A stretch of 63,726 nt of DNA, counting the filler, from Atractiella rhizophila (taxonomy: Eukaryota), in the NCBI GenBank assembly GCA_021432655.1. It is 16 parts of 15 records of this genome, joined end to end, with 100 filler letters (N's around TTAATTAATTAA, not from the genome) between each part and the next. Parts side by side here need not be neighbours in the genome. Positions count along the whole stretch, not along the records: positions 49,885 to 54,728 come from MU272421.1; 15 more parts are not named here. One strand, given 5' to 3'. The translations under genes and the position numbers were made by a program. Below the pieces are notes generated by a model. That model did not search any database, was not told where the DNA came from, and saw only the letters and a program-made list of their open reading frames with translations. Position 1 is the stretch's first letter. Each line of letters starts with the position of its first letter. This document shows positions 5,038 to 61,200 of this stretch, one piece after another.

Positions 5038-5137
5038 NNNNNNNNNNNNNNNNNNNNNNNNNNNNNNNNNNNNNNNNNNNNTTAATTAATTAANNNNNNN
5101 NNNNNNNNNNNNNNNNNNNNNNNNNNNNNNNNNNNNN
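5038..5137. other. Artificial contig linker N44-TTAATTAATTAA-N44 (stops in all six frames); first of 15
   Basis: Identical 100-bp linkers at 5038, 10167, 15287, 20406, 25520, 30584, 31799, 36783, 41762, 43244, 44834, 49785, 54729, 59667 and 62148. A plain scaffold gap without linker lies at 6270-6453. Confidence 0.98.
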
Positions 5138-8100
5138 AGCATGACGCCTTCGTAGTCGTCTCCATGAGAATGACCACCGACCAAAGAGCCCTTCCTTCCT
5201 ACGACACTGAACCTGCTGGAACCGAAGGGCGACGTCTGAGGGGACAGTAAATAGCTGGTAGCAGCAGATTAGCAACGGCGCATTCGAGGTGGAGAGTGTG
5301 AAACAAACCAGACGTGTGCCGCGTCATTCCAACCATTATTACCCAGCGTATCTCCCAACGCTGTTAAAGTCGCCGAATCGCCATTTGGTTGATTGCTTAT
5401 GATCATAGCGGCCGTCTCTCTCCATTTGTCTAGAACATCATTCGAAATGTTGGAGTAAAGCGAAAGGTCAGGAAAGTTAGATGACATCGGAGTCGCCACG
5501 GGTTGGGAGTCATTGGGGCCATTAGCCGAGAGATGAGAACCGAAGGTTGGACCAGCATTTAGAGGTCGAGGAGGGAGGAACTCTTGTACTGCATGACTCT
5601 ATCAGGTCTGTTTGTATGTAAAAGAAAACGACGGACTGGAGTTAGCACCAGCGCCAGCAAATAAGCTGTAAGCAACCCTTAAGCTTTCTTTCCCGTTACT
5701 TCCACCCGGTCCAGCTCCAAGTTCGTGCTTGATGAACTCCTGCGCTACCTCCTTCCAAGCTTCTTGATCCACCGCGCTTGCGATAACGAAAGCATGAGCC
5801 CAAAGTTTCCTATCAATCGTATACTTAAGCGCTTTCTTCTTTTCTCCACAAAGGAGGATCGAGTGAATCTTCTCAATATGGCTCGGAAGGACGGTGTAGG
5901 TTGCGACTGGAGAAGATGATTGGGTGTTGAAAGACGGTGTGTTGGGTGTAAGGGGGTTGAAGCCGATTTCAGAAGCGAGGGGAAGGTCAGCATCTGTAAT
6001 ATCTGCTGCATTGGCAGCGTAGGGTACGAGGATTGCTCGTACTGCGTTTTCAGCTTTGGATGAACCTGTCAGACGTCCTTCATTTTCCACGAGGGCTTTG
6101 ACAACCTTGAAAAGGGCTAGGCGATCTTCGACCCTCCTTTCTTTCTCCATCGGCTGAATACCAGAACCAACCATATACTGTACCTCTTTCTCCAATTCTT
6201 CTATTCTTCCATCCAACCAAACCATCACCTCTTTCCTCTTCTTCCCCACATTTCCCTTCCCTCCATCCANNNNNNNNNNNNNNNNNNNNNNNNNNNNNNN
6301 NNNNNNNNNNNNNNNNNNNNNNNNNNNNNNNNNNNNNNNNNNNNNNNNNNNNNNNNNNNNNNNNNNNNNNNNNNNNNNNNNNNNNNNNNNNNNNNNNNNN
6401 NNNNNNNNNNNNNNNNNNNNNNNNNNNNNNNNNNNNNNNNNNNNNNNNNNNNNCGTCCGGGAAGAAAGTGATAATTTTCCCACCCCGTCCAAAACGCACA
6501 GACGGGACGGCAGGTCGTCTATCCTCTGCCGCCGTCCCAGCAGATGGACCCATGGAGGGGTTGATGACTTCGCCAAAAGAAGAAAAGGAATCAGTGCTCT
6601 GTTGGCGCATCATTCTTGCCCTTCGAGATTGGGGGTCAACTACGCTTTGGGGTCGTATAGGCTGTTGAACTGGTGGAGGTGCGTAAGGATCCTCTGAGAA
6701 AGAAGGCATGGACATCATTGGTCTGATACTCGTCGGAGGGCTTGCTGCAGGAGGAGGGGAGACAAAGACCCTGGGTGGGGGAGAGGCGACGTTTCTTGCT
6801 TGCTCGGCTTGGGGAGCAGAAGCAGGTGGGACGGATTCGAAGGACGAGGAGGGGACAACTGGACTCGCGTAGGGGTTATAAGCGTCGTACGAGTGTTGCG
6901 GTTGGGATCCATAGGACAAGGAAGTGTCGTAAGATTGATGTTGCGATTGATTATACGTTTGCTGTTGCTGTTGATGCCGTTGGGTTCCACTGTAGAAATC
7001 GGAACCATCGAGCCCTTCTTCCTTCATCTCCGCCCCTAGCCCTCCAAAGTCCCCTCCTCCAAATTCCTCCATTCCTCCACCCCATGCACTCTCCTCCTGC
7101 ACCTGCATGACTGCAGCCGCACCTCCTCCCTGTCCAGGTCTTATCGTCCCGCTCCGTTCTCTCCCCATCGCCCATTCGTCCTCTTCCTCCTCTGCAACCA
7201 TGAGCGATGCACCTTGTCCATGGCCTCCCGTCCCGCATCCGACAAAGAAAAGCTAGTTTCGCCATCTCCCAGGCGTTGAGGGTTGGAGCGCAAGTTCTGG
7301 AACGATGTTGTGCTGCGTAGTTGGCGGAGTAGAGACTGTAGTGCTTGTGGCTTTAGGAGGAGGGGAGAAGGTGCTCGGTGGGGGAGAGAAAGTGCTTGGG
7401 GGAGGAGGGGAGACAGTCACCTGCGCTGGAGGGGGTGAAAAAGTACTTTTTGGCGGAGGCGGTATGGTCGTTGCCTTTGGTGGTGGGCTGAAAGTGCTCT
7501 TTGGGGGCGGACTGAAAGTGCTTTTTGGTGGTGGACTAAAAGTGCTTTTTTGGTGGCGGACTGAAAGTATTCCTCTGCTGCTGAGGGGGAGGGGGCGAAA
7601 AACTGGTCCTCGGCTGCGTGCGGCTTGGTGGAGGGGTAAATGTCGATGGAGGGGGAGAAAACACATGTGCCCTCTTCGTTGTCGTGGTCAACGGCTCAGG
7701 ATCACCATACGCTTGTCTGTCTGGGTCATATACGGCATAGGGATCGTCATACGCTTGGTTGACAGTGCCGAAGGAAGGAGTTGTGGATGCGGGAGGTGGT
7801 GAGGTTGACGTTGTGTGGTATGACGAGGACGCAGGAGGAGGAGGAGGGAATGTCTTCTGCGCGGTTGGAGGTGGAGGGATGATCGATCCCGCATTCGCCA
7901 TAGTTGGAGGTGCATCCGACGCCGCTTGTACGGGTTGAATAGGAGCATAAGGATCGTCGTACGCTCCAATGCTGCTCGTTGGTGGTTTATACGGGGTTGA
8001 CACACGTTGTGGCTGGGCTGGTGGGGCAGGGAGAGAAGACGACGCGTTAGGAGAGAGGTAAGAGTCAGCCGGCGCTGGCGCTGTCCACACCTCCATTTAA

Positions 8101-11477: not shown

Positions 11478-13017
11478 ATGTCAACTTCCAAAGCGTCGAA
11501 TCCACTTTACACGCCTCTTCCTCCTTCTTTGTTAGGCGGCAGTGGTAGCGGGGGTCCGACTTCTGGGACAGACCTAGCCTCTCTCTTCCCCTGCCTCTTT
11601 CCCTCAATCACCCCACTACAAAAGGAGAACCAGCAAACGTCTATCGCTGGGAGATTGGAGAAGAAGAATATAGTTTTGGAGAACGAGAAGGGGAAGAGGT
11701 CGAAATGGAAGCAGGAGAAAATCGATAGAGCGAGAGAGGACAGGGAGAAGAAGAGGAAGGCTAGGGAGATCGGGAAGAAGGAGAGGAAGAGGAAGAAGAA
11801 GGGAAAGGATACTAGTTTGAGGTGCGCTTTCCTAGTTCTAGAGCGAAGGGAAGTATGCCCACCGCAGAGCGTGGCTTTGGAGCGTATGGTGTATAAGGAT
11901 ACTGTGGCACAATTTGTGCTAGCCTAGCAGACGAGTTGGAGAATACCTGCCAGCTGTCCCTTTCGCTTTCTTCACGAATGGGATGAATTGCCCAGGTAGT
12001 CTGTCTTGTGAACTATTCTACATTCACTGTTTGACTCCCTTCCTGCAACTCGAAAGGATCAGAGTAATGTAGCTCTCCAGCTGTACCTTGATTTGTATAT
12101 TCAGTAGCCACACAATTCCTTGCCTGCTCTCCTTAATGCTCTACATACTACCAGATGACATCGGGCAAAGCAATACGAGACGCATGACTGGAACCGTACA
12201 GGGATAATTCGTCTTGCTGTTGTATTCTTTGTTTGTTAAGGGCTCGCGTTCCCTGGGGATCGTAGTACTTCAAAGTAGCTGATTGGGCAGCAATCCCACC
12301 TGTTCTTTTGTCCCGTGTGGACGCTTTTTGTCTATCCTCTTCCACGATGAAGCAGCAAGCACGACAAAGTGCTGAGCAAACGATGTTCTTTCTAGTTTCG
12401 ACACCATCCTTCCACTACACCATCTATGGTTAGGCTACATGGCAGAACTCCTAACGCTCCCCATCCTTGTTCCTCCCTCACCATCCGATCCTAAAACAAT
12501 GCCGAATCTGCACGTTCGCGCCGTCTCTTGCATTAATCATCATCTGACCTCCCTTCCAAAGTCGCGTCCTGCCCACACCGACGTCACACCAGCCGATGAC
12601 ACCCTCACGTCGAAGCTCACAAACTCTTCGATACAGTCGATGCAAGCCAAATTGCTCAAGGCAGACTTTCACGGTTGTCTGATCAAAGTGAAGCGAAGCA
12701 AGAATGCCTCGCTCATCGGAGGCGAAGGGATCGTGGTCAAGGAGACGCAGGGGACGTGGGAGGTCGTCTCGAGGAAAGGGGAGAGGAAAATCTTTCCCAA
12801 GTTTAATTCCATTTTCGAAATCGCCTTGCCACTTGTACCCAGTACGAATACGGCAGGAGCGGAAAAGGCGAATGGGATGGAGGTAGATGGAGAAAAGAAG
12901 GAAGAGAGAAGAGAGCTCCGGTTCGAGATTAACGGGACACAGTTTTGTTATGATCCCGTGGAAAGAGTAGGAAAGAAGTGGAAGGGTTCGGCGGCCGAGA
13001 AAGGTTGGGAACATTGA
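11478..13017 (+). CDS. POP4: RNase P/MRP subunit p29 (Pop4/Rpp29); exons 11478-11821 and 12396-13017
   Basis: FDTILPLHHLWLGYMAELL and AKLLKADFHGCLIKVKRSKNASLIGGEGIVVKET...KIFPKFNSIF are Rpp29 signatures; the GT-AG intron 11822-12395 joins the exons in frame. Confidence 0.92.
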
Positions 13018-16334: not shown

Positions 16335-18635
16335 CTACAACTTTGCGCGCACGTCATCTTCGTATTGCATTGATACTTCAACGCCCTTCGTGTCCTTCAG
16401 TAATCGTCGCAAAATCTTTCCGGAAGGCTAGACACGATGTCAGTCCTTCATATTCAAATTGCTGTCCAGAGTGGATACTTACACTCTTGGGGATAGCTTC
16501 AACAAACACTAATCCGCCTCTCGGCCTGATAAGATCACTACATTAGCTTGTCAAATGAAGCAATCAGGAAATCTTACCACTTGTAGTGGACTGTGCGAGT
16601 TTCAACAAATTTGCGGATCTGCATCGCGACCGCCTTGCTCTCTTCACAAGAAGAGCCTCGTTTCAAAACAGTTTCAAGAAGCTTCTTGTCGGAACTGAGG
16701 TAAAAGTCAACGTTAATAAGCAAAAAATGGTCGGAACTCACATCACGACCCAAGCTTTCGGCCATTCCGTAGCTTTCTGCTCATCATAAATGGAGCTCAC
16801 ACCTGCGTCAGCAACCAAGTCACATTCGCAAAGGATGGACTCTAGATCTGCTGGTGATACTTGAAACCCTTTCACTTTAATCATCTCTTTTATCCGATCC
16901 GTAAGCCAGAGATTTCCATGTTTATCGAACTTGCCAACATCACCTGCTTTTGATTAGGTCGGGAAATGCTATGGTTGGAGACTGACCAGAATGTACCCAT
17001 CCTTCGTCTTCCAGAGTATCTGCCGTTGATTCAGGACTGTTGAGATAACCCATGAAAGCACCAGGTGACCGGATTAGAAGTTCGCCTTCTTCCTCAATAC
17101 CCAGTACTTCAGACAATAACATCAGTGACTTTAAAGCTCCTATGATTGCTCTCATACCTTTCTTGCTCTTCCCGCGAGTTCCGACTTCCACTATAAGGCC
17201 CTCTTGACCAGGCATAAACTTCCCACAACTCCCGAGCATGCGTTCAACTTCGTCCCAGTTTTCACCACCGACGGTAGTATTCCCACCTTTGTCATAAGCT
17301 TAGCTCCGAGGAGCCTGATTGACAGAGACACAATACCTGTCTCCGAAGCACCATAACCCATATGAATGATCAAGCCCAGTCGGTGGTAAACCTCTTTGAT
17401 AACATGAGGCGAAAGCGGTGCGCCGCCGCTTGTCATCGCTTCCACTGACGAAAGATCGAACGATTCGAGAATGGGTGATTTGGCCATGAGAACTGCAACG
17501 GGAGGCGCAATGTGGAGGTGAGTGATCTTATACTTCTGCACGAGTGAAAGGTAGAAGACAGGGTCGAATTTGTGGACGATCGTGGCAGTTATTCCAACCG
17601 CAGGACACATGCACAGAATATTGGCGAGAGCTACGAATGATGAACATGATCAGTCATTAGGAAAACACTGGAAGAGAACATACCATAAATATGATAGAAT
17701 GGAGGCAAAGCGAGGAATCGCTGGGGTCCTGAATATTCTGGGTGGCCCCAACGCAAGCTCACGACGTGAAATATTCCAGCTTCGTGGCTTAATACCACAC
17801 CTTTGCTTTTCCCGCTCGTCCCGCTGCTCCATAAAATATAGGCCACCCTTCTTTTAGCTTCTCCTTTCTGGAACGGTCGTATCTCATGCTCTTTTTCGGC
17901 AAGCAAAGTGGTCCAGTCATTCGGCGGTAAGGAAGAAGGTGTCCCGTAATAGTCTGTGGGAGAAACGGTGAAGAGGTATTTCGAATTCCCAGAGAAACGT
18001 CGAGACACCTCAGAATCTTTTAGTTCGGAAAATGCCGCCTGCAAAGAAGATATAGCCGTAGTGTGACAGAAAATGACGCTAGGCCGCGAGATGGAAAGTA
18101 TATGCGCAAGCTCTGTCGGTGTAAGCAGTGGATTCGCCATGGTCACCTAACTGACCATCAGTTAGCAATCACAAATGATGACAGAAGACAAACGGTCAGG
18201 GAAGCAGCAAGTACCCCAAACATGATTGAGGGAAAGACAAGGCTGTTGGGAACGATCATCAAAACAACAGGGGAGAGAATTTGACCCTTCCCCGGCTTGT
18301 ACGGAGCTGGTTGAACTGCACATTTTGTGACGAGGCCTTCGGCTAGTCTGAGAGAATCTCGTTGTAGTCGCCCATGAGATAGTTGCGAACCTAGTCGAAG
18401 GAGGCACGGTCATTTATTTGACAATAATCAAATCGGGGAAGAAACGCTCACCAGTCAGAGGATCAACGAATATAGGCTTTTCAGGTGGAATAAGTTCGTT
18501 AAAGGCATTCTCCCCCAGCTCTTTAGGCGTATCAAGTAACCCAGATTTTTTATGGAAGGGGTTTGAGAACAGAAACTTGGAGAGGTTTACGTCGGGGCAG
18601 GAAATAAAGAAAGGTGGTCTATGTTGAGCAGACAT
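16335..18635 (-). CDS. 4-coumarate-CoA-ligase-like acyl-CoA synthetase (adenylate-forming), peroxisomal PTS1, multi-exon
   Basis: AMP-binding motifs YILWSSGTSGKSKGVVLSH, GYGASETG, GWVHSG|D..., DRIKEMIKVKGFQVSPA and PSGKILRR; C-terminus ...DDVRAKL-TAG. Confidence 0.92.
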
Positions 18636-44933: not shown

Positions 44934-45888
44934 TCGTTTGCAGATTATCAGGAGAAGAGTACAATTCAAATGTACTCTGATGCCTTCTGGAAGCTTGCAG
45001 CCTGCCGACTCCAGTTCAAAGCTACTTCGCATCAACTGGTAAGCAAGCATGATTTTGGATTGTGACTTCTCACGATATCGCTATAGGCTTATTTCCCTTG
45101 CCTTCTACGCATATTCAATATGGTTGTCACTCGCCGTTATTACGTTGTGGCAGCCGGACTCTTCATTCTTCAATAAGTTGTTTACGCCGTCTATGTCGTC
45201 TTTAAAGGCGTCCCAACACCTATTGCTCTCGCTGTTGGCGTTGCTCGAATTCCGGATACAGTCCACCTTTTCGCTCTAGGGCTCATCGCCGGAAGCTTGT
45301 CATTTGGAGGTGCATACACTGCCATTCCGTTCATCCAAGCCGAAGCTGTCCTCCTTGGTGCATGGCTACCGATGGTATTGCAATTGGAAATATCATTCCC
45401 GCCCCTTTGGTCATTTTTGCGACATTTGTCGGATTTCAAGGTGGAAAAACGCTGCGAGGTGTTGGATACGGCTTTTCGGGTGCCACGGTCATCACCCTGG
45501 GCATGTTCTTCCCATGTTTTCTATTTACAATAGCCGGTCATGATTTGCTCGAAAGACTATGTCGCAACAAGGTAACCATTATCCGCAACCTGTGTAGCCC
45601 ATACTTACATATTGATAGTTTTTATCTGCTTTCTTTGACGGCATCGGTGGGGCAGTTGTAGGGGTTATAGCTATCACTGCTCTTCAGTTTCTCAAAGCTT
45701 GTGTCGGTGCCATACCTGGACAAGAATTGACCACGGAAGACACCGCCCGGACGCTATCCTACGATGCGACGGCGGCTGTCGTCTATGTAGTCACTCTTGT
45801 TGCCCTCTACAAGGCTAACCACAAATATGCAGTGATTCTAATGATTGTCATCGGCGCGTTGTCAGGACAGTTTCTCTTTGTAGAATGA
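44934..45888 (+). CDS. Chromate ion transporter (CHR/ChrA family), C-terminal half, frameshifting deletion near 45368
   Basis: LGLIAGSLSFGGAYTAIPFIQAEAV..GAWL / DGIAIGNIIPAPLVIFATFVGF / FFDGIGGAVVGVIA. Confidence 0.88.
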
Positions 45889-48601: not shown

Positions 48602-49784
48602 TAGCGATGGCTATCGTCCTGTCCATACCCGGCTTTTGAATTTCCGGCCTGGACAAGGTTTTCATCGTCCTCGTCCCGTCCCAAGCCTCGTCCTTGAGAA
48701 TCAAGGTTGGGCGGTTTGAAGAACGGGACGAAGAAGGGCGGTGAGGACGGTTAAAGGACGAGGGGAATATGTGATATCAGTGTCATTGCATTGTCAAAAC
48801 AGTAATTCTGACCTCGGAAGATCCATGCAATGTGAGAAACCAACCAAAAAAATTGAAGATGAGAAGGAATATCAAGCCGCCTTACATAGCACATCAGAAT
48901 TCATTATCTTCTCTATCTCCTGTTTGACCTTCACTATCTTTTCTCCTGTTCCACCCGAAGAGTGACTTCGAGAAACATCAGAGCTCGGATGGATTCAAGA
49001 TCCAATAGAGCCCTTCGGATGCCAATAGTATCACATGCACTAGAAAAGATATGTTCAACGGCGACGGCACTGCAGAAGATCATCTATCAGTGCTACAGCC
49101 CATTGGCATTTGGAATGACAGCATGTGCATACCTGGAATAGAAAGAATGTCCCGTGCCATCCGAGAAAGGTTTGGAAGATTCTTCTCAGACTCTTCTTTC
49201 CAAAATTGAAGCGGATTGCAATCCCAAGGAAGCCTTTCATGCCGGAAGAGATAATCAAGCTCCTTTTGTGCCAGATCTTGCAGCCGAGAAACACTTGCAC
49301 TTGAATGGGCTTCTATCAGAGCGGCCACAAGGTTGAGACGCTTCCTCTTCTTGACTTTGCCATGAATGGGATTTTCACCTGGATGAGAACATCAACGATG
49401 TTCAGCTGCTCTTGCAAAGCGCTTGGTTAAGGAGATTCTCTTGTTATTGTTGTCCTGGTTGATACACTTTTTAAGATAATCGATCATTCCCTCCATTGGA
49501 GTAGAGAATTCCTGGGCCCCACCAGAGAATCCAATCGGCAATGTGCAAGAGATGGTGGATGCACATGGGCATTCGAACAAGTCGAGATCGATCCCCATGT
49601 ACAAATACCTTCTCTCAGCCTGTAACGAAATTGGCAAAATATTCTCGAATTTTGAGCCGCTCCTCTTCCGTGATCTGATGCTGCCATACGAGCTGGCAGC
49701 CACAGACAAAAGAGTCAATTACGTTTAGGACATTGAGAGGAAATCCAAGGAGGAAAGGCTAGAAAGAAGCAGCCAGTCGTAAAC
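48602..49784 (-). mobile_element. hAT DNA transposon, 3' end: degenerate transposase dimerisation domain, subterminal repeats, putative TIR
   Basis: NPLQFWKE..KNLPNLSRMARDILSIP|..AVAVEHIFSSACDTIGIRRA. Putative TIR TAGCGATGGC at 48602 resembles the Ac-type TAGGGATG. Clustered CGTCC then GGACG motifs at 48615-48760. Confidence 0.8.
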
Positions 49785-49884
49785 NNNNNNNNNNNNNNNN
49801 NNNNNNNNNNNNNNNNNNNNNNNNNNNNTTAATTAATTAANNNNNNNNNNNNNNNNNNNNNNNNNNNNNNNNNNNNNNNNNNNN

Positions 49885-52240
49885 CTTGTTGCAGATGGAA
49901 ACTGGCACAACTTCCTCAGATGAATTATACATCGTCGCATCAACTTGGAGCCGACGTGGGGAGACTGAAGAACAAGCGACGTCGCGACCCCGAAGAAGAT
50001 TTCTCGTCTCCCATCGCTCTCGACAAGACATTGCAATCCAAACTGTCGAATACCGCTCGATTGTACCTCGCCATCGTTTTGTTGGAGCGTTTGCTTCGAA
50101 ATGAAGTACCATTCTCGTATGACGATAGCCTGTCGAGCTCAGAGCAGCAGCTGAAGTTTGAGAAACATCTACTGCAGGGTTCGTCTTCTTATACACGGGT
50201 GAGATTCCTGAATTAATGGGACAAACAGACGTTGCGCCACTTGCATTCGAACAATATTACTCGAACGAGATAAAGACAGTGGGATACGCGCTTCAAACGG
50301 AAATGGAGGTGAGCCTAAAGCTTGTTACCGTCGTAGGATGTGTAGGACTTACGAAGGCGTAGATCTGGCTTATTTACACCATATCTGTTGGAATCTGGTT
50401 TGCTCCAAACTCTGTGGGCCCTAAATTACATCCTGATGAAAAGGCCATTGTTGACCGACTCTGCAGGATATTGTGCGATCAATACCTTGGCGGTTTTTGC
50501 CTACCAACGCTTTATCCTCACGGGAAGGACAAGGGAGACGAGAATCTTCATTACTTAAACTATTAGAGTCATGCCTCTCCTCGTCCTCGTCACTCCGGAA
50601 GACAACTTTCGACAACTTATCCATCATCCTTCAGCTCACACATGCATTTATTGATCAATTGCCTCGGCCGGACGTTTGGAAAGCGATGCTCGAACTGGCT
50701 CTGGAACATTTTGGTGCGCTTTGGCGGAGAAGTGTAACCGAGCGAGAGTGGCTGAGAAAGCGACAACTTGCCCATTTGATTGTAAGTCTCATTCCTGTCC
50801 TTGGCAAACAGGCTCATGCTAATTGTGGCCCAAGCGACTGTCTAACTCTTACACCTGTCGATTTGGTGGCTCCCCTCTGCTGTACGTCCACATTCTCAAA
50901 CAGGCCCCATTATCCTAAACGGATGTTTAGTTCGGAGAAACATTACAAACGATTCCTCCCACAAGAGGGCAGCATGGATTGTCGTCTCTTCACAGATATC
51001 ACATTTTATTCTACATTAATTACGGAGGCGGCCGAAGATCTCACAGCCATCGACGGACACCTCCAGTGCACGAGTCGCCAGCTTGCCTCTGCCCGTATGT
51101 CCTAACGTTTCAACTTGCCTGTAGGGAACCTGTACTGACCGAAAAGCAAGGTTGTCTGAATGTCAATATTTCGGTTGAGAATACGCTGTCTGATCTCCTG
51201 CACGCGGTTCAAGGATTTCGCGAATCCTGGAACCGGCGCTTCCCCCTTTCATCGCTCGAGTTCTCAGCAGCCAATAGCCCATCGAGCTATAACGTGGAGA
51301 GCCCCTCGTCACCCATGGCGACTTCGTTAGGCGGAACACAACTTCCAATGCTCCAGTCCGTCATGATAACCTCACTAATGACGCGACATGCCCTCCTCCT
51401 TGATACCATTTCCCGGTCTTACATCTCAGTCTTCCCCACCAGCACCGAACTGCAAACCCTTTCGCAAGAGTGCGAACAACTCTGTCGTCAGCAAATTGGA
51501 GACAGTCTTCGATATCTCGATATATTATCCAGAACACGGCAGGACCAAGTTGGTTTAGCCTGGGCTTCCATGATAATGATGGAGTTTGACTGTATGGAAG
51601 GCGGGTGGAGGGGATTGGCAAGGTGGTTGATCAACCAAGAGGACGATGAATTGCGACAGCGCACACTTAGGTTTGTCTTCATTCAACTAATTTATTCGAT
51701 CCTCTAACGCCGCTTTAGTGTAATACTGAGGAGTAAGGCAGCATGGTGTTCAAGCCTGATCATCGACAGGATTGATGAGTTCGAGGAGGAGTTGTCCCAC
51801 CATTGTTTCTTCGTTAGTCTTCCTTCATTCCGCCCGATTTGTTAGTGCACTTATGTCTGTGCGTCAGGAAACATTCTCAGATGTTACATCTCCAGGATCC
51901 ATGATATCTACGGAAGGATCTGGGCCAGAGCAGAACCTCCAAGCCTGGATGGAATTGGAGCAGGCGCTTCTCAACAACGAAAAGTTCGATGATCTTCGCC
52001 TCTTAACTGCCTCACCCGTGCTCTCTGATTTTCAAGGGACAATGGACGATTTTGGATCTAAATTTATTATGCGAATGGACACTATGTGAAGCTGTATGGA
52101 AGAAGTATGCATTTTGTAGCAGATTGCAATTAATTGTCGTTGTTCACATTCACTATCCTCTCTTATGCCTCCGTCAGCTCACTCTTCAAATTCTGTCTCG
52201 ACTCCATATGTGCTTTTCTAGGTTCGCCTTTGAAGTATGA
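49885..52240 (+). CDS. Hypothetical multi-exon protein, 5'-truncated; possibly a fungal transcription-factor middle region
   Basis: Successive long + strand frames (49920, 50473, 51125-51670, 51870-52089) separated by GT-AG intron-like gaps; no diagnostic motif. Confidence 0.4.
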
Positions 52241-52295
52241 GAAGACCCAGCACTCGAAACTACAAGTGATATGAGTAGAGGTGACATCTTCCTTG

Positions 52296-52321
52296 ACGCG
52301 TCGAAAAGAAAGTCGACGCGT
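52296..52321. promoter_or_regulatory. Two MCB (ACGCGT) boxes within a 9-bp inverted repeat upstream of the H3 variant
   Basis: ACGCGTCGA-AAAGAAAG-TCGACGCGT, about 260-285 bp before ATG 52582. Confidence 0.5.
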
Positions 52322-52581
52322 GACGTATTATGAGTATTTCCTGTTACTGTATGCATGTCTTGGATTTAATTCAATGGAGCCTAAATCGACATTTTCAACT
52401 TGAAAATGACTAGCTTGTGAACCACCTTCACAACACGCTCCTGAGAAGCAATTCCTGAGCTTTCCATCTGTTCCCCTCCCCTCTTGCTGCCTTCACCTCC
52501 TCGTTCCATCCTCTTCTGTCTATATCTTCAAGCGAAAGTCCCAATACATGCACCCGATTCGCCAGGTTTAGAAGTTCCAGC

Positions 52582-53468
52582 ATGGCACGCACCAAAGTAC
52601 TGTGTTCTCATGTTCCCAAAGTCGAGAAAATTTGACATCCTGCTGCCAGCAACAAGCAAGAAAATATGTCCCAATTAAAACAGACAAGAACCTGAGCCAA
52701 AAGAAAAAAGGGTGCGCCGTATCCTTCGTTTGCTCCCCTTCTACCAGTGAAGGGATAGATTTTGCTGAAGAAATCGATGGAACAGAGGCTGGCTCGAAGC
52801 ATCGCCGTTATAGACCCGGAACTGTAGCGTTGAGGGAGATCAGGAAATACCAGGGAAGTACAGATTTCCTAATCAGAAAACTTCCGGTGCGTTCCCCTCA
52901 TCCCCTCTCTCTGCTAGCGAGAGTGAAGACATTGATGGGCTCAACACCTCTTGGTGGTGGATGTAGTTCCAAAGACTCGTTAGAGAGATCGCGACCGAAT
53001 TCAAACCCGACATCCGTTTCCACGTGTCTGCAATGGACGCATTGCAGGTCTGTCTCCATCTTCTTCCTCCATGAATAGAGCTGGCGTGAAGACCACCCTG
53101 TTCCTTTGGCGTGAGGAAGGTATCGGCTGAACAACATTTGGTCGATTTGTTCAGTGACGCGAACGTGAGTTCTCCCTGTTGAGGCAGTCGCCGAGACCCC
53201 ATCGCACATGGTGACCCATCGTCCTGCGGTACAGCTATGTGCCGTCCACGCGAAACGCGTCACAGTGATGCCAAAAGATATCCTCCTGGCTCGTCGTCTC
53301 CGAGGGGAGAGCAACGACATCTTGTCCACGATTCCTGGATCGCATCCAAGGAGGGGAAGCGGCTCTAACGGTTCGATAGGGCGAGGATCTATGCACGGGA
53401 TGGGCACAAGAAGTAGCGGAGAGAAAGGGGGGAGGCCGAGGGGAGGTAAAACTGGAGGGAAACATTGA
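52582..53468 (+). CDS. Divergent histone H3 variant with ~50-aa C-terminal extension; exons 52582-52596, 52650-52711, 52748-52886, 52967-53047, 53120-53164, 53235-53468
   Basis: [15 protein letters not shown]...|[113 protein letters not shown]+52 aa. All introns are GT-AG and the frame is intact. Confidence 0.92.
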
Positions 53469-53782
53469 AAGGCGGAGGTAAGCACTTTGATTTGTTCTGG
53501 GTGCAATTATGACAAACCGTAATAATAGGGCAATTCAAGACATGTTAACATGTTGACCATACTGAGGCATTCGGTATTCGGGTTTAAATATTGGCATAAA
53601 TCCTAGCAGAGCCCCTAAAGCCCATTGTTCGAGAAATTGTACTTTAGCAAATATTATTCGCATGTTGTCAAACAGGCATTAGCAGAGTTTGAGCACCTCG
53701 CTTTCCGGGCGTGCTTAGGCGCTGTTGATTAAAGGCAGACAGTAGACACACTTTATAGCGCGACAGAATCTAGCATCTGTCC

Positions 53783-54360
53783 TCAAATCGTAAGTGTCGA
53801 TACCTCCAAGTCGGAGTGATCCAAAGGCCATGAAATAGCGCACCAAAGCGGACTGCAAATATATTCTGTGACAAGGTCGGCTTTGTCTCGTGTATTGTTC
53901 TTCACTGATGGAACAATAACGGAGAGAGTTAAAAGAATCATTTGTTCTTTTAGGCAGTGATTTACAATGGGTTTAGATAATGGTCTTGGAAAGCTCTGTC
54001 GCATCAGTTGCCTAACTTTGTAGATAAACGTAGCTGCCTCTCTCCCCTTATATGGTAAGCTCCTTCCTCTCAGCTTTAGACGCCTTCTCCTCCATTCGTA
54101 GTGTGAGAGATGAGATGTTGCTACAAAACACGTGATAACTCGTTTTAGAGCAGTATTATGCTTTTCCGTCAACATTATCATGTAAACTAACCATAGAGTT
54201 AGAGAACAGCATTCCATATCTTTGATACTACCAACGTGTTTATACTGAACTGGGGTACCCCTTGTCGCAACCGAGTGAATTGCGCACCAGCATGTTCTTT
54301 CTTTCGAAACACCTTTATAAATGCCTCCATTGCATTAATAGTCTTATTTCAACCTGTTCT
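53783..54360 (-). mobile_element. Probable decayed LINE (Tad1-like) post-RT fragment
   Basis: ATRGTPV...MECCSLTLW...EKHNTALKRVITCF resembles the LINE pattern RG....EY.S.VW...QN.ALR.I.G.F; AT-enriched region. Confidence 0.35.
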
Positions 54361-54404
54361 ACACCAGCTACGTTGCCCGACCTTGCTCATGAACTTGCCA
54401 CACG

Positions 54405-54532
54405 AATAAACAAATAAACGAATAAACAAATAAACACCACTTCCACTCAGTTGAAGCTGGTTGATGCATCCAGCATTCTGAGGATTGTTGCTTCGCTCCG
54501 CCAGCCACGTATTTGAGCCAGTATTTGAGCCA
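54405..54532. repeat. Short tandem repeats: (AATAAAC-R)x4 at 54405-54436 and GTATTTGAGCCA x2 at about 54509-54531
   Basis: Read directly, upstream of the ERG26-like start. Confidence 0.75.
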
Positions 54533-54561
54533 CTCCAAGTCGCCCTCTTCCACTCAGGACG

Positions 54562-54728
54562 ATGCCCTACAACCCCTCTCCACCCGAAGTCTACGCCGTC
54601 ATCGGCGGCAGCGGCTTCCTCGGCGGAAACCTGCTCAAGGCGCTCTCCTCCCGCTACCCCACAGCGACCATCTACTCCCTCGACCTCTTCCCCGCGCCAG
54701 CCACCAGCCCGCTTCCTCCTCGGTGCAC
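54562..54728 (+). CDS. 3-beta-hydroxysteroid dehydrogenase / ERG26-like NAD(P)-binding protein, N-terminus only
   Basis: YAVIGGSGFLGGNLLKAL...IYSLDL: extended-SDR GGxGFxG Rossmann motif. Confidence 0.65.
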
Positions 54729-54828
54729 NNNNNNNNNNNNNNNNNNNNNNNNNNNNNNNNNNNNNNNNNNNNTTAATTAATTAANNNNNNNNNNNNNNNN
54801 NNNNNNNNNNNNNNNNNNNNNNNNNNNN

Positions 54829-57310: not shown

Positions 57311-57516
57311 GCTAGGAGAGAATTTGTGAGCAGTTATTATGGCTGGTGGAGGAGAATCAAAGTGCGGCTTGTGCTGGATTTGGTTGTTGCAACTGTGGTT
57401 TGTTGTCGTCGCTGTATGTCGCGGATCGCGTGCGTCGGCGCATCCGCTCCACGTGACTATGATAAGCAACGCAAGAGCCATCAAGGCATTAGCATTTGGT
57501 CATTAGAAAGAGCGTT

Positions 57517-59032
57517 ATGAAAGACGCGTCAAGCTCTAAAATTCTTAGTGTGACCTCGTCGCAACCTTCGCGTTCGACGTTGACCAATCATACCGTCCCG
57601 CCTTTCTATGCCTGCTACCTTTTGCGTTCTCGCCAAACCGGGAAGAATGGACGCCTCCTCTCCCGCACCTATATAGGCTCAACTCCTGATCCATACCGTC
57701 GAATCCGGCAACACAATGGTATTCTGAAGAATGGAGGTGCATGGAAAACAAAACGAGGTCGTCCATGGGAGATGGAAATAATAGCCCATGGATTCCCCTC
57801 CAAACTCACCGCCTTGCAGTTTGAATGGGCATGGCAGAACCCGGAGAGGAGCAGGCATCTTGCGCTGGTTGTAGATGAGGAAGGAGAAGACGTGAAGAAA
57901 GCCAGGTTCAAGAAACACCCCCTGGCATACACCATGAAGAACAAGATTCTGGTGCTTCAATCTATGCTCTGCTCGCCTCCGTGGGATCGATATTCTCTCG
58001 AAGTTACGATCTTTGGGGAGGATAGCTTGGCCGCATGGGAGGATAACCTTGAACCAACGAAGGAGCCCGGGAGGAACAAGAAGGTGAAGAAAGCAGCGCC
58101 GGCGGTGAATATTAAGCTAGAAGAGGAGGAGATATCCAAACTCAAGCTAGTGAAGGTCCACAAACGCTTTGAAGGTGTGGATGGAGGTCGAGCCCAGCGC
58201 GAACCAGGCGAAATGATGGGTTCGACAAATCCTTATGTTGCGAATGACGGTATGCTCCTTTTTCGGCCACATGCAGGACTTACTAATTGGATTTCATGAT
58301 GCAGATGAATACACTTGTGCACAGCTCAAACGCTGGGAATCTTTTCTTCCAGGATTTGGTGGAGAAAAATGTAGCGTCTGCAACCTCGACGTCGACGTTC
58401 GAAATCACCTCACCTTCGCCTTCTGCCCTCACCAACGTTGCACAAGTATTTCACATCTCTCATGTCTCGCCTCTTCCCTCCTCAAATCTGACACCACCGC
58501 TCTCATTCCTGATCACGGCGCATGTCCCGCTTGCAATGGAGAGCTAGTTTGGATCAATCTCATCCGCTGCAGCTACCGCAGGCACGAAGTCTACACTTTG
58601 GGAAAGAAGCAGAAAAAGGCTCGTAGAATGAAGGCTGCCATTCCTGACAGCGAGGAAGAGGACGAGGACGAGAGTGAAGACGAAGAACGTGCCCTGGCAG
58701 TTGAAGACGCAGCTTACGACGCTTTACCAGAAGAATTCGAGGGCGTGGATGAAGCAATCCTGGTTGCAGGTGGAGAGGAAGAATACTGCTGGGACGATGA
58801 GCCTCAAACGAGGAAGACGACGAAGAAGGAGCAAAAGAAGATAGGATCCGACCTACCAAACGCCTTGGAGAAATTGCAGCCAACGACAGCGCCAGAGACA
58901 TCCAAACGGAAATCCAAGCCAAAGTCGACGAGCTCACTGCCCACCGTTCTCGACACCCTCAATGTCGTCAAACCCCCGTCAAAGTCTCACATCAAGAAGA
59001 AGAAGATTGAATATCTCGAAATATCCGACTGA
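57517..59032 (+). CDS. SLX1: Structure-specific endonuclease subunit Slx1 (GIY-YIG plus C-terminal zinc finger); intron 58250-58304
   Basis: PPFYACYLLRS...TYIGSTPDPYRRIRQHNG...GGAWKTKRGRPWEM...GFPSKLTALQFEWAWQ; CSVC...CPHQRCTSISHLSCLA...CPAC. Confidence 0.95.
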
Positions 59033-59766: not shown

Positions 59767-61200
59767 TGCATTAGGGCTTGCCATCGCTCTTGAATATGAC
59801 TGAGGGACCTCTACTCCTGTTGCTGCACTCTTGGCATGCTCTTGTGACAAGCATATAGCCATATTCCATCGCCTCTGGCTCAGTGAGTACGTCACATTCC
59901 TTTACCAACATCCCAAGCTCATCTGTTAACCCTTCGTCGTTGTTTTGAGGGGCTTCTGGGGTCCTAAATCTGTCGACAGGTCGTCCTCTACTCGTAGAAT
60001 AAATTCTTGAAGGGCCTGGTGACAGGGGGAGGTGTTGAAGCTGCTGGAGGAGGTCGATCTGGTGTTGTTGGGTGGATCTGGAGTGGATCTGGAGACTCTG
60101 AGAATCTAGGCATGTGAACTCCTGTCCAAGGATCTCTCTGCATGGTGTACTGACGAGGTGGTGTCCTAAGGCGTTCAGGCACAAGCTGTAGTGGGTCTGG
60201 AGGACGGCTTCTCTTTCTTTCTTCTGCTTCTTTCTTCTTCGACCTGAAGGGGCTGAAATCGATTTGGAGACTGTATTCCAAGCGGCCTGGGTTGTTCCTG
60301 AGGTGTAGGAGGTGCTCCTGGCTGTTGAATCCATCCATCTTCTTCTTCGTCATCGTCGTCTAGCGAAATCCTGGCTGGAGGAGCAGCTGGAGCATTGTTC
60401 TGTCCATCTCCCACCTGATCCTGACGCTCCTTCCACTCATCAAGTGGTCCCTGTGGCTCTTCCAACATAATCTTCTCCTTTCTGACCTTGCAGAGCATCT
60501 CTCTCTCATCAAATCTGGCAACATCTCGGACGTAGACCTTCTTTGCAACAGGATCCCAGAACTCCCACCCTTTCGCTGCAAGGGAATAGCCTATAAATGC
60601 ACATTTTCGAGTATGAGACCCTAAGCTGTGTGGCCTTTCATCCTTCTGAACTTGAACGTAGGCAGTGCATCCAATGATTCTGAATCTTGAGATGGTTGGA
60701 GTAAGTCCAGTGAGTTTCGTATGGGGAATAGCGTGGTTGATCGAAGCTGAGGGAGATCTGTTGCGGATGTGGACGACCGCTGAAGCAATAGACGGCCAGA
60801 GAAAGAGTCGAAGTCCAGATTCTTCAAACATGGCGAGCATAGTCTCCTGAATCGTCCTATTGGCTCGTTCTGCCCTGCCATTCTGGTGAGGAGAGTTCCT
60901 GATCGTCTGTTCGCGCTGAATACCACAGGCCTTGAGGTATTGATCGAATTCCTTGGAGGAATAGGTGCCTTCCTTGTCCTCTCTAAACTTCTTGATCTTC
61001 TTCCCAGTGACATTCTCTACCCAATTCTTGAAGGTCTTGAAGAGTTCTGGGCCTCTGATTTCTTCTCAAGGAAGGCGATGGTGCAATGATTTGTTGCTTC
61101 GTCGATGAAGGTGACCCAATATCGATATCCTTCTCTGGATGTGACTGCAAGAGGTCCATGCAGATATGAGCTAATCCTGAGAAGAATAGACGCTGGATGG
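59767..61200 (-). mobile_element. Degenerate Ty1/copia integrase and linker fragment
   Basis: RISSYLHGP...YRYWVTFIDEAT (first catalytic D appears as Y), QNGRAER region, RFRIIGCTAYVQVQKDER..LGSHTRKCAFIGY...KGWEFWDP; frameshifts present. Confidence 0.9.

Follow-up and report, generated by a model that had tools for sequence, protein, structure and literature searches.

The subject of this analysis is a histone H3-like gene of Atractiella rhizophila (Basidiomycota, Pucciniomycotina, Atractiellomycetes), located on the forward strand at positions 52582-53468 of the analysed stretch of DNA, which is 63,726 nt long and is referred to here as the window. The product combines an H3 fold with a C-terminal extension of 52 residues, and the gene is read, with a probability of about 0.5, as a lineage-restricted H3 variant gene of this basidiomycete whose extension arose from loss of the stop codon. 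A tblastn search of the whole window with the protein of the six-exon model found this to be the single H3-like gene. Its true genomic context is confined to the 4,844-bp A. rhizophila contig at 49885-54728, as the rest of the window is unlinked to it.

Gene structure and product

The original prediction described six exons encoding an intact H3 fold. In this model, referred to as model A, all exon borders are GT-AG, the introns measure 53, 36, 80, 72, and 70 nt, and the exons are joined in frame to a product of 191 amino acids with the stop codon TGA at 53466-53468. All exons lie on the forward strand. Exon 1 (52582-52596) encodes the initial methionine and ARTK, and exon 2 (52650-52711) starts with QQARKY. 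Exon 3 (52748-52886) is composed of a 5' part (52748-52787), which corresponds to an "acidic patch" described for the N-terminal tail, and a 3' part (52788-52886) encoding the segment before αN, αN itself, and the start of α1. Exon 4 (52967-53047) covers α1, loop 1, and the start of α2, while exon 5 (53120-53164) contributes the middle of α2, the most diverged segment. Exon 6 is divided into a fold part (53235-53309), which comprises the end of α2, loop 2, and α3 as far as the motif RGE, and a tail part (53310-53468) with 52 Gly/Ser/Arg-rich codons and the TGA. With its borders, its frame, and a gapless alignment to residues 37-133 of H3, the predicted fold gene holds up.

The protein is deposited in GenBank as KAH8913764.1 (P0012), with a length of 176 amino acids and the name "histone-fold-containing protein". 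Its sequence was recovered letter for letter from the window using the exons 52582-52603, 52697-52746, and 52788-52886 together with the last three exons of model A; thus, the window holds the deposited gene. Exon 4 is identical in both models, and the 3' part of exon 3 is common to them. The first exon of the deposited model is longer than in model A, and its second exon is read in another frame. Codon-usage log-odds trained on the Pfam-supported open reading frames (ORFs) of the window came out close to 0 bits for each codon, fold exons included, which leaves this measure without power here.

Histone fold

The Pfam family Histone (PF00125) matches P0012 with an E-value of 1.9e-36 and a score of 125.4 bits, at a cutoff of 26.4, and single exons are matched as well. 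A sequence search of the Protein Data Bank (PDB) yielded 179 matching sequences, the best 60 of which are all histone H3 with scores of 149-153 bits; the three PDB alignments printed are free of gaps. For residue mapping, the first 136 residues of P0196 served as the canonical H3 reference. The alignment to canonical residues 37-133 is gapless, and 71 of the 97 residues are identical (73%). Among the residues checked for DNA contact and for the four-helix bundle, 19 of 21 are identical, namely R40, R42, R49, R52, R63, K64, R69, R72, R83, K115, R116, T118, K122, R128, R129, R131, C110, H113, and L126. The two exceptions are R53, which is replaced by Lys, and I130, which is replaced by Leu. Q68 and F84 are also kept, and position 36 is Ser. 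As stated in the original prediction, K56 is replaced by Gly and K79 is retained.

The differences from canonical H3 are concentrated in α2. This helix of 30 residues holds 13 of the 26 fold differences (Fisher p = 0.024), and its changes include residues 89-90, E94, Y99, G102, and E105. Residues 87-90 read SAMD, with V89M and M90D relative to the H3.2-type reference. The chaperone-recognition signature of H3.3-type histones at these positions is of the AAIG type, and the Atractiella protein does not carry it. It also lacks K27, K36, and K56 in the context that characterises canonical replication-coupled H3.

In silico modelling with AlphaFold, based on an alignment of 38 rows, gave a predicted local distance difference test (pLDDT) score of about 95 over the fold, with helices at residues 36-45, 55-69, 77-104, and 112-121. 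The 50 Foldseek matches listed from the PDB are all nucleosome entries, with template-modelling (TM) scores for the target of 0.74-0.90. Sequence identity is 60-76% in 49 of these, like canonical H3, and many rows have a root-mean-square deviation (RMSD) of approximately 1.5 Å over 94-95 residues. The outlier is 8xjv_n, with 66% identity and an RMSD of 8.1 Å. The Pfam match, the gapless alignment, and the 26 differences among 97 residues support the assignment of the protein as an H3-fold variant that is not canonical H3, in agreement with the earlier claim.

The C-terminal extension

Beyond RGE, translation can continue for 52 codons with no in-frame stop before the TGA. The encoded tail contains 15 Gly, 9 Ser, 6 Arg, 3 Lys, and 3 His residues and has a net charge of +7. 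In the AlphaFold model, a short helix is formed over the first tail residues and the remainder is disordered (pLDDT <55). The first 14 nt after RGE contain no GT. Moreover, none of the possible GT-AG introns of 40-200 nt would bring back the usual terminus of H3; a minimum of five tail residues is left by each of them. The predicted continuation of 52 amino acids past RGE was recovered in full, with neither a stop nor a tail-removing GT-AG intron in the sequence. In its two alternative frames, the tail region runs into stops after 22 and 18 codons. The probability that 52 codons stay open by chance is about 0.087 according to 20,000 shuffles, and 0.078-0.098 according to base composition.

The distribution of the tail was analysed in sequence searches. 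With the last exon as query, 128 candidates among 5.8 billion clusters included 10 matches at E ≤ 0.001, and the tail was covered by a single one of these, P0001. Among 1.84 billion representatives, 470 matches were obtained at E ≤ 0.001, with P0001 as the sole match at E ≤ 1e-30. In metagenome contigs from JGI and ENA, 94 relatives were confirmed; none of the 80 that were kept reaches beyond residue 53 of the last exon. The ESM Atlas returned generic H3 clusters and nothing more specific. When full-length P0012 was used as query, the 120 rows listed were mostly H3 models of 227-308 amino acids, apparently fused or tandem to judge from their length and score, and there were no additional A. 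rhizophila histones among these 120 matches. As far as these searches reach, the sequence data support a restriction of the tail-bearing H3 to A. rhizophila; the tail is shared only within the cluster of this species across the cluster, representative, and metagenome searches, as expected from the predicted lineage specificity.

The metagenome locus extending furthest into the tail among those kept is L012 (match 1077-1244), which aligns in tblastn at 46% over residues 1-53 of the last exon and so takes in 28 residues of the tail.

The tail had also been described as an echo of the K9-K14 region of H3 and of the N-terminal tails of H2A and H4. This likeness was assessed on ten inspected rows that reach into the tail in the search of 1.84 billion representatives. 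In two H3-H4 fusion models, P0169 and P0209, a real H4 N-terminal tail aligns with the Atractiella tail, and the scores are 40.7 and 38.7 bits, respectively. Typical H3-only rows score in a comparable range, 37-39 bits. The resemblance to the tails of histones is therefore one of composition, and the proposed echo was not borne out. A remnant of a downstream H4 gene was considered as a source of an H4-like tail and rejected, as none was detected by tblastn.

The literature found contains no description of an Atractiella histone or of a long C-terminal extension on an H3 from a fungus; the protein itself is already in GenBank under its generic name. Non-canonical H3 variants do exist in Basidiomycota, according to the available part of PMC6703697.

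A second copy in A. rhizophila

The search with the last exon identified a GenBank cluster of three A. rhizophila proteins, namely P0012, P0001, and P0011. P0001 (KAH8923262.1) has 165 amino acids and is encoded on a 91.5-kb contig. P0011 (KAH8914215.1) is a partial protein of 81 amino acids from a 9.2-kb contig and repeats the C-terminus of P0001. P0001 and P0012 are identical at 147 of 155 positions. In the tail of P0001, the frame is open, with 3 substitutions and an in-frame insertion of 3 amino acids. This conservation in the second copy adds support to the tail as a putative ORF. Within the fold, the two copies differ by Q85H and Y99H, both derived in the copy of the window and both at otherwise conserved positions.

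The N-terminal tail

Three splice models compete for the N-terminal tail. In model A, the spliced start reproduces the first ten residues of H3 save two positions, as judged by comparison with P0196, and this H3-like start is a strong argument for the first intron that model A predicts. In the deposited model (model B), other borders are used, exon 2 is read in another frame, and a different N-terminal tail results; the "acidic patch" (52747-52787) is here an intron of 41 nt. Model C differs from model A in keeping the 36-nt intron and encodes 203 amino acids. Both A and B depend on an intron of very small size, 36 nt in the former and 41 nt in the latter.

The start of P0001 matches another frame of 52759-52775 and then changes to the frame of model A, which implies a probable indel of 1 nt between the two copies within the "acidic patch". 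Because of this 1-nt frame difference, the segment would not be coding alike in both copies.

The predicted rewiring of the N-terminal tail can be upheld in its fold-proximal part, where the K27 and K36 contexts are lost; the ARKS context of K27 is absent from all three models. The replacement S10Y and the acidic patch depend on one of at least three splice models. A similar distinction applies to the two tail isoforms that had been suggested. Intron 2 (52712-52747) is indeed 36 nt long, in frame, and without a stop; the isoforms themselves are model-dependent, and the deposited model differs.

Proposed origin and alternative explanations

According to the favoured explanation, an H3-type gene lost its normal stop codon, and translation would now run through 52 codons of purine-rich sequence that formerly lay 3' of the gene. 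Because the fold appears to retain what pairing with H4, the H3-H3' four-helix bundle, and the holding of DNA require, the protein would be expected to enter nucleosomes. The changes in α2, the surface read by histone chaperones, together with the loss of K56, may indicate a deposition route other than the bulk replication-coupled one with K56 acetylation. The extension would leave the nucleosome at the H3 C-terminus, on the face of the disc and next to the dyad and the nucleosomal acidic patch. At this site, the basic and mostly disordered tail could form an additional arm touching DNA, the acidic patch, or a reader protein.

Several points weigh against this explanation. It is based on an observation made from sequence only and in one species. 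The predicted N-terminus is spread over three splice models and is not secure. The gene is found on an unplaced contig of 4.8 kb, and its two forms could be allelic and not paralogous. The substitutions Q85H and Y99H in the copy of the window could reflect relaxed constraint. Conservation of the tail over a protein divergence of about 5% would be weak proof of selection, and with a chance of about 8-10% for an open frame of 52 codons, the tail ORF taken by itself is no more than mildly unlikely to be fortuitous.

One alternative is a young duplicate or divergent allele of H3 under relaxed constraint, in which the tail would be a functionless read-through after stop loss and the protein rare or absent. 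This alternative is a serious one, albeit unlikely. It is in line with the occurrence in a single species, the small unplaced contigs, and the frame difference between the copies in the N-terminal region; however, all five introns of model A are GT-AG, three of them being the fold introns that the deposited model also has, and splicing yields an unbroken frame. Relaxed constraint would also explain why two conserved positions in the fold of the window's copy have changed to His, yet the 26 changes from H3 leave the checked contact and bundle residues untouched save for two conservative exchanges. The low complexity of the tail and the odds of about 1 in 11 for such an open frame fit a read-through without function. 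Set against this, the tail frame is kept in both copies, their sole length difference in the tail is a multiple of three, and a structured candidate promoter element, the ACGCGT pair described below, is present. If the gene were nevertheless a drifting duplicate, it would illustrate that small unplaced contigs can carry oddities, and that features which seem adjacent in a concatenated window need not be so in the genome.

The second alternative is an atypical and unusually H3-like centromeric H3 (CenH3, also CENP-A or Cse4), in which the hydrophobic start of the tail, from SNDIL onward, would bind CENP-C/Mif2 and the rest would form a basic arm. This alternative, weighed in the following section, is regarded as rather improbable.

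That the tail is a gene-modelling or assembly artefact and the true protein ends near RGE is very improbable, even though databases often contain read-through or fused models of H3, because independent contigs of the assembly carry the same open frame, which moreover is free of stops for 52 codons and, as described above, offers neither a GT within 14 nt of RGE nor a GT-AG option that would leave fewer than five tail residues.

Relationship to centromeric H3

In the available part of PMC4359364, CenH3 is diagnosed by an extended loop 1 and by the absence of a conserved Gln, Phe, and Thr. Loop 1 of the Atractiella protein has the length of that of H3, in line with the gapless alignment, and both the Gln (Q68, or Q69 with Met counted) and the Phe (F84/F85) are present. 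The Thr is printed as residue 118 in that part of the source, where its numbering is ambiguous; T118 is present in the Atractiella protein, and Ala is found instead of T107. The CenH3-like proteins compared are 48-64% identical to the fold and require gaps, in contrast to the canonical H3 rows, which are 70-75% identical without gaps. Neither CENP-A nor Cse4 is found among the best 60 of the 179 PDB relatives. The original prediction had considered CenH3 improbable. This view is sustained by loop 1, Q68, and F84, which contradict three of the diagnostics, and falls short of proof.

A phylogeny had been proposed as a further check. Trees were calculated from 50 and 45 fold sequences. In both trees, the Atractiella pair stands alone on a branch of about 0.3 substitutions per site, inside an H3 polytomy without resolution. 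The nominal sister group in the best trees is an environmental family consisting of P0152, P0302, P0316, and P0339. Support for this grouping in the Shimodaira-Hasegawa-like approximate likelihood ratio test (SH-aLRT) is 82 in the quick tree; in the careful tree it is negligible, with a bootstrap of 20 and an SH-aLRT of 38.8. The grouping was not used as evidence. The members of the P0152 family are unnamed JGI/Logan records with long acidic or serine-rich N-terminal tails, a retained Q68, and a loop 1 close to the canonical form; three of the four share a conserved hydrophobic C-terminal end, IWGL. To judge from these sequences, the family looks like CenH3 that likewise breaks the classical criteria. 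The pattern RG[DE]-x-N-x-I-[LW] at the start of the tail is present in full in P0152 and P0302, partially in P0316 (without N), and is absent from P0339.

The C-terminal tail of CenH3 beyond the fold is the docking site of CENP-C. Several features of the Atractiella protein would suit such a role, namely the short helix at the start of the tail in the AlphaFold model and the tail-start pattern, which is found in full in two of the four members of a family with long CenH3-like N-terminal tails. This family is also the sister in the best trees, albeit with the negligible support given above. The N-terminal tail departs from H3 after about ten residues; in model A, however, its beginning still holds the K4 and K9 motifs. 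The segment of α2 equivalent to the CENP-A targeting domain (CATD) is the most diverged, and K56 as well as the K27 and K36 contexts are lost. On the other side stand the 73% gapless identity to H3, the normal loop 1, and the presence of Q68 and F84; at the two candidate positions for the Thr, T118 is present and residue 107 is Ala. The existence of at least two diverged copies is a further point against a centromeric role. CENP-A is robustly conserved across Basidiomycota according to Supplementary Data 1 of PMC7794384, as far as that source was available, and on this basis Atractiella should have one; the genus is absent from the available portion of the CENP-A table of that publication. In addition, the paired MluI cell cycle boxes (MCBs) upstream of the gene recall the control of fission-yeast cnp1 by the MluI-box binding factor (MBF), as described in the accessible part of PMC8424319.

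The specific proposal that Atractiella has a centromeric histone which breaks the CenH3 criteria and carries a 52-residue basic arm at the exit point for CENP-C docking is judged distinctly improbable. If it were true, it would show that the standard sequence criteria for calling CenH3 can fail, and the tail could stand in, as part of the histone itself, for a lost contact between kinetochore and chromatin. In Basidiomycota, CCAN (constitutive centromere-associated network) linkers have repeatedly been lost, and a basic domain of bridgin holds the chromatin, as outlined in the available part of PMC7794384.

Flanking elements and genomic context

Upstream of the histone gene, two ACGCGT cores, which resemble the MCB, form an imperfect inverted repeat of 10 nt at 52294-52323 and represent a candidate G1/S promoter element. 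The cores are located at 52296 and 52316, 20 nt apart, and lie 286 nt and 266 nt, respectively, upstream of the start codon. In the whole window, ACGCGT occurs at 8 sites, with 7.2 expected. In fission yeast, MBF confines the transcription of cnp1 to G1 via such boxes, as far as the available part of PMC8424319 describes it. By analogy, the pair may be taken as a lead for cell-cycle control, and it does not decide between the explanations. Downstream, a strong GTAAGC donor 10 nt past the stop codon and an AG at 53528 suggest a putative 3'-UTR (untranslated region) intron of 51 nt on the forward strand (53478-53528).

The window includes 16 runs of N, which separate 17 stretches of about 1.1-5.0 kb in roughly descending size. 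Fifteen of these runs are linkers of 100 nt with TTAATTAATTAA at their centre (e.g., 5038-5137, 49785-49884, and 54729-54828), the latter two flanking the contig of the histone gene (49885-54728). The 16th run (6270-6453) is a plain gap of 184 nt. As the window consists of small contigs strung together, features on its different pieces are not physically linked. On the contig of the histone gene, three long open frames that resemble exons of one gene are found upstream at 50455-52086 on the forward strand. None of the other ORFs on this contig, including those at 50455-52086, matched a Pfam family.

Self-BLAST of the window revealed no repeat involving the contig of the histone gene. Carriage by a transposon and local repeats were therefore rejected, all the more as the transposon fragments of the window, namely a dimerisation-domain fragment of a hAT transposase (49083-49391, reverse strand) and a fragment of a copia-type retroelement (SH3_retrovirus; 60178-61065, reverse strand), are situated on other, unlinked contigs. 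Further small contigs encode the RNase P/MRP subunit p29 (12376-13014, forward strand), an AMP-binding enzyme (17194-18146, reverse strand), a chromate transporter (45206-45658, forward strand), and SLX1 with its GIY-YIG and SLX1_C domains (57493-59029, forward strand). As these are ordinary genes, the small contigs do not consist of repeats alone; they may be pieces of an alternative haplotype.

Comparison with known histone variants

Compared with canonical H3 and H3.3 (e.g., PDB 1aoi, 1kx5, and 5b0z), the Atractiella protein has the same fold, the same length of every fold element, and 73% gapless identity. It also shares the checked contact and bundle residues, save for R53K and I130L, and, in model A, the first ten residues save two. 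It differs from them by Gly at position 56, SAMD at 87-90 where H3.1 and H3.3 have their signatures, changes at 13 of 30 α2 residues, the missing K27 and K36 contexts, and the 52 residues past the fold instead of two.

With CenH3/CENP-A/Cse4, the protein shares its nature as an H3-fold variant, the divergent N-terminal tail, and the concentration of divergence in the region of loop 1 and α2. It differs by its normal loop 1, the retained Q68 and F84, and a much higher identity to H3. Its tail is ten times longer and basic, in contrast to the short and hydrophobic tail of CenH3.

Among the histone variants in the literature found, the nearest and only precedent for an H3 with a C-terminal extension appears to be H3.X, a primate-specific H3 variant of humans, which likewise has an unusual extended C-terminal tail according to the available part of PMC2935562 (Wiedemann et al. 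2010). In the modelling described there, this extension is an extra helix that packs into the core, and the rest of the nucleosome is almost unchanged. The Atractiella extension differs in being basic and mostly disordered by prediction, a comparison made by description and not by sequence, and limited to that part of the source. A looser analogy may be drawn to H2A variants such as the plant H2A.W, where a core-histone variant gains a C-terminal tail that alters nucleosome or chromatin properties, as far as PMC6125630 and PMC11239853 were available. This would be an analogy without sequence relation, as another histone and another exit point of the nucleosome are involved.

Several environmental H3-like proteins (P0203, P0006-P0009, P0218, P0173, and the P0152 family) also continue for 10-55 residues past RGE or RGD, and none of these carries the Atractiella tail sequence. 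P0173 combines a CenH3-like fold with a Gly/Arg-rich extension and is 41% identical overall, and P0218 originates from Cyanophora paradoxa. Such H3-fold database proteins with extensions may be real proteins or artefacts of gene models. P0203 has a near-canonical N-terminal tail and an extension of 53 amino acids.

Biological significance

The C-terminus of H3 normally ends two residues past the fold, at a crowded and functionally important site where the acidic patch, the binding site of CENP-C, and the side of the dyad come together. A natural H3 with a basic tail of 52 residues would be a ready-made probe of what can be tolerated and read at this site. If the proposed origin is correct, the A. 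rhizophila gene would exemplify how a histone variant can come into being through the loss of a stop codon.

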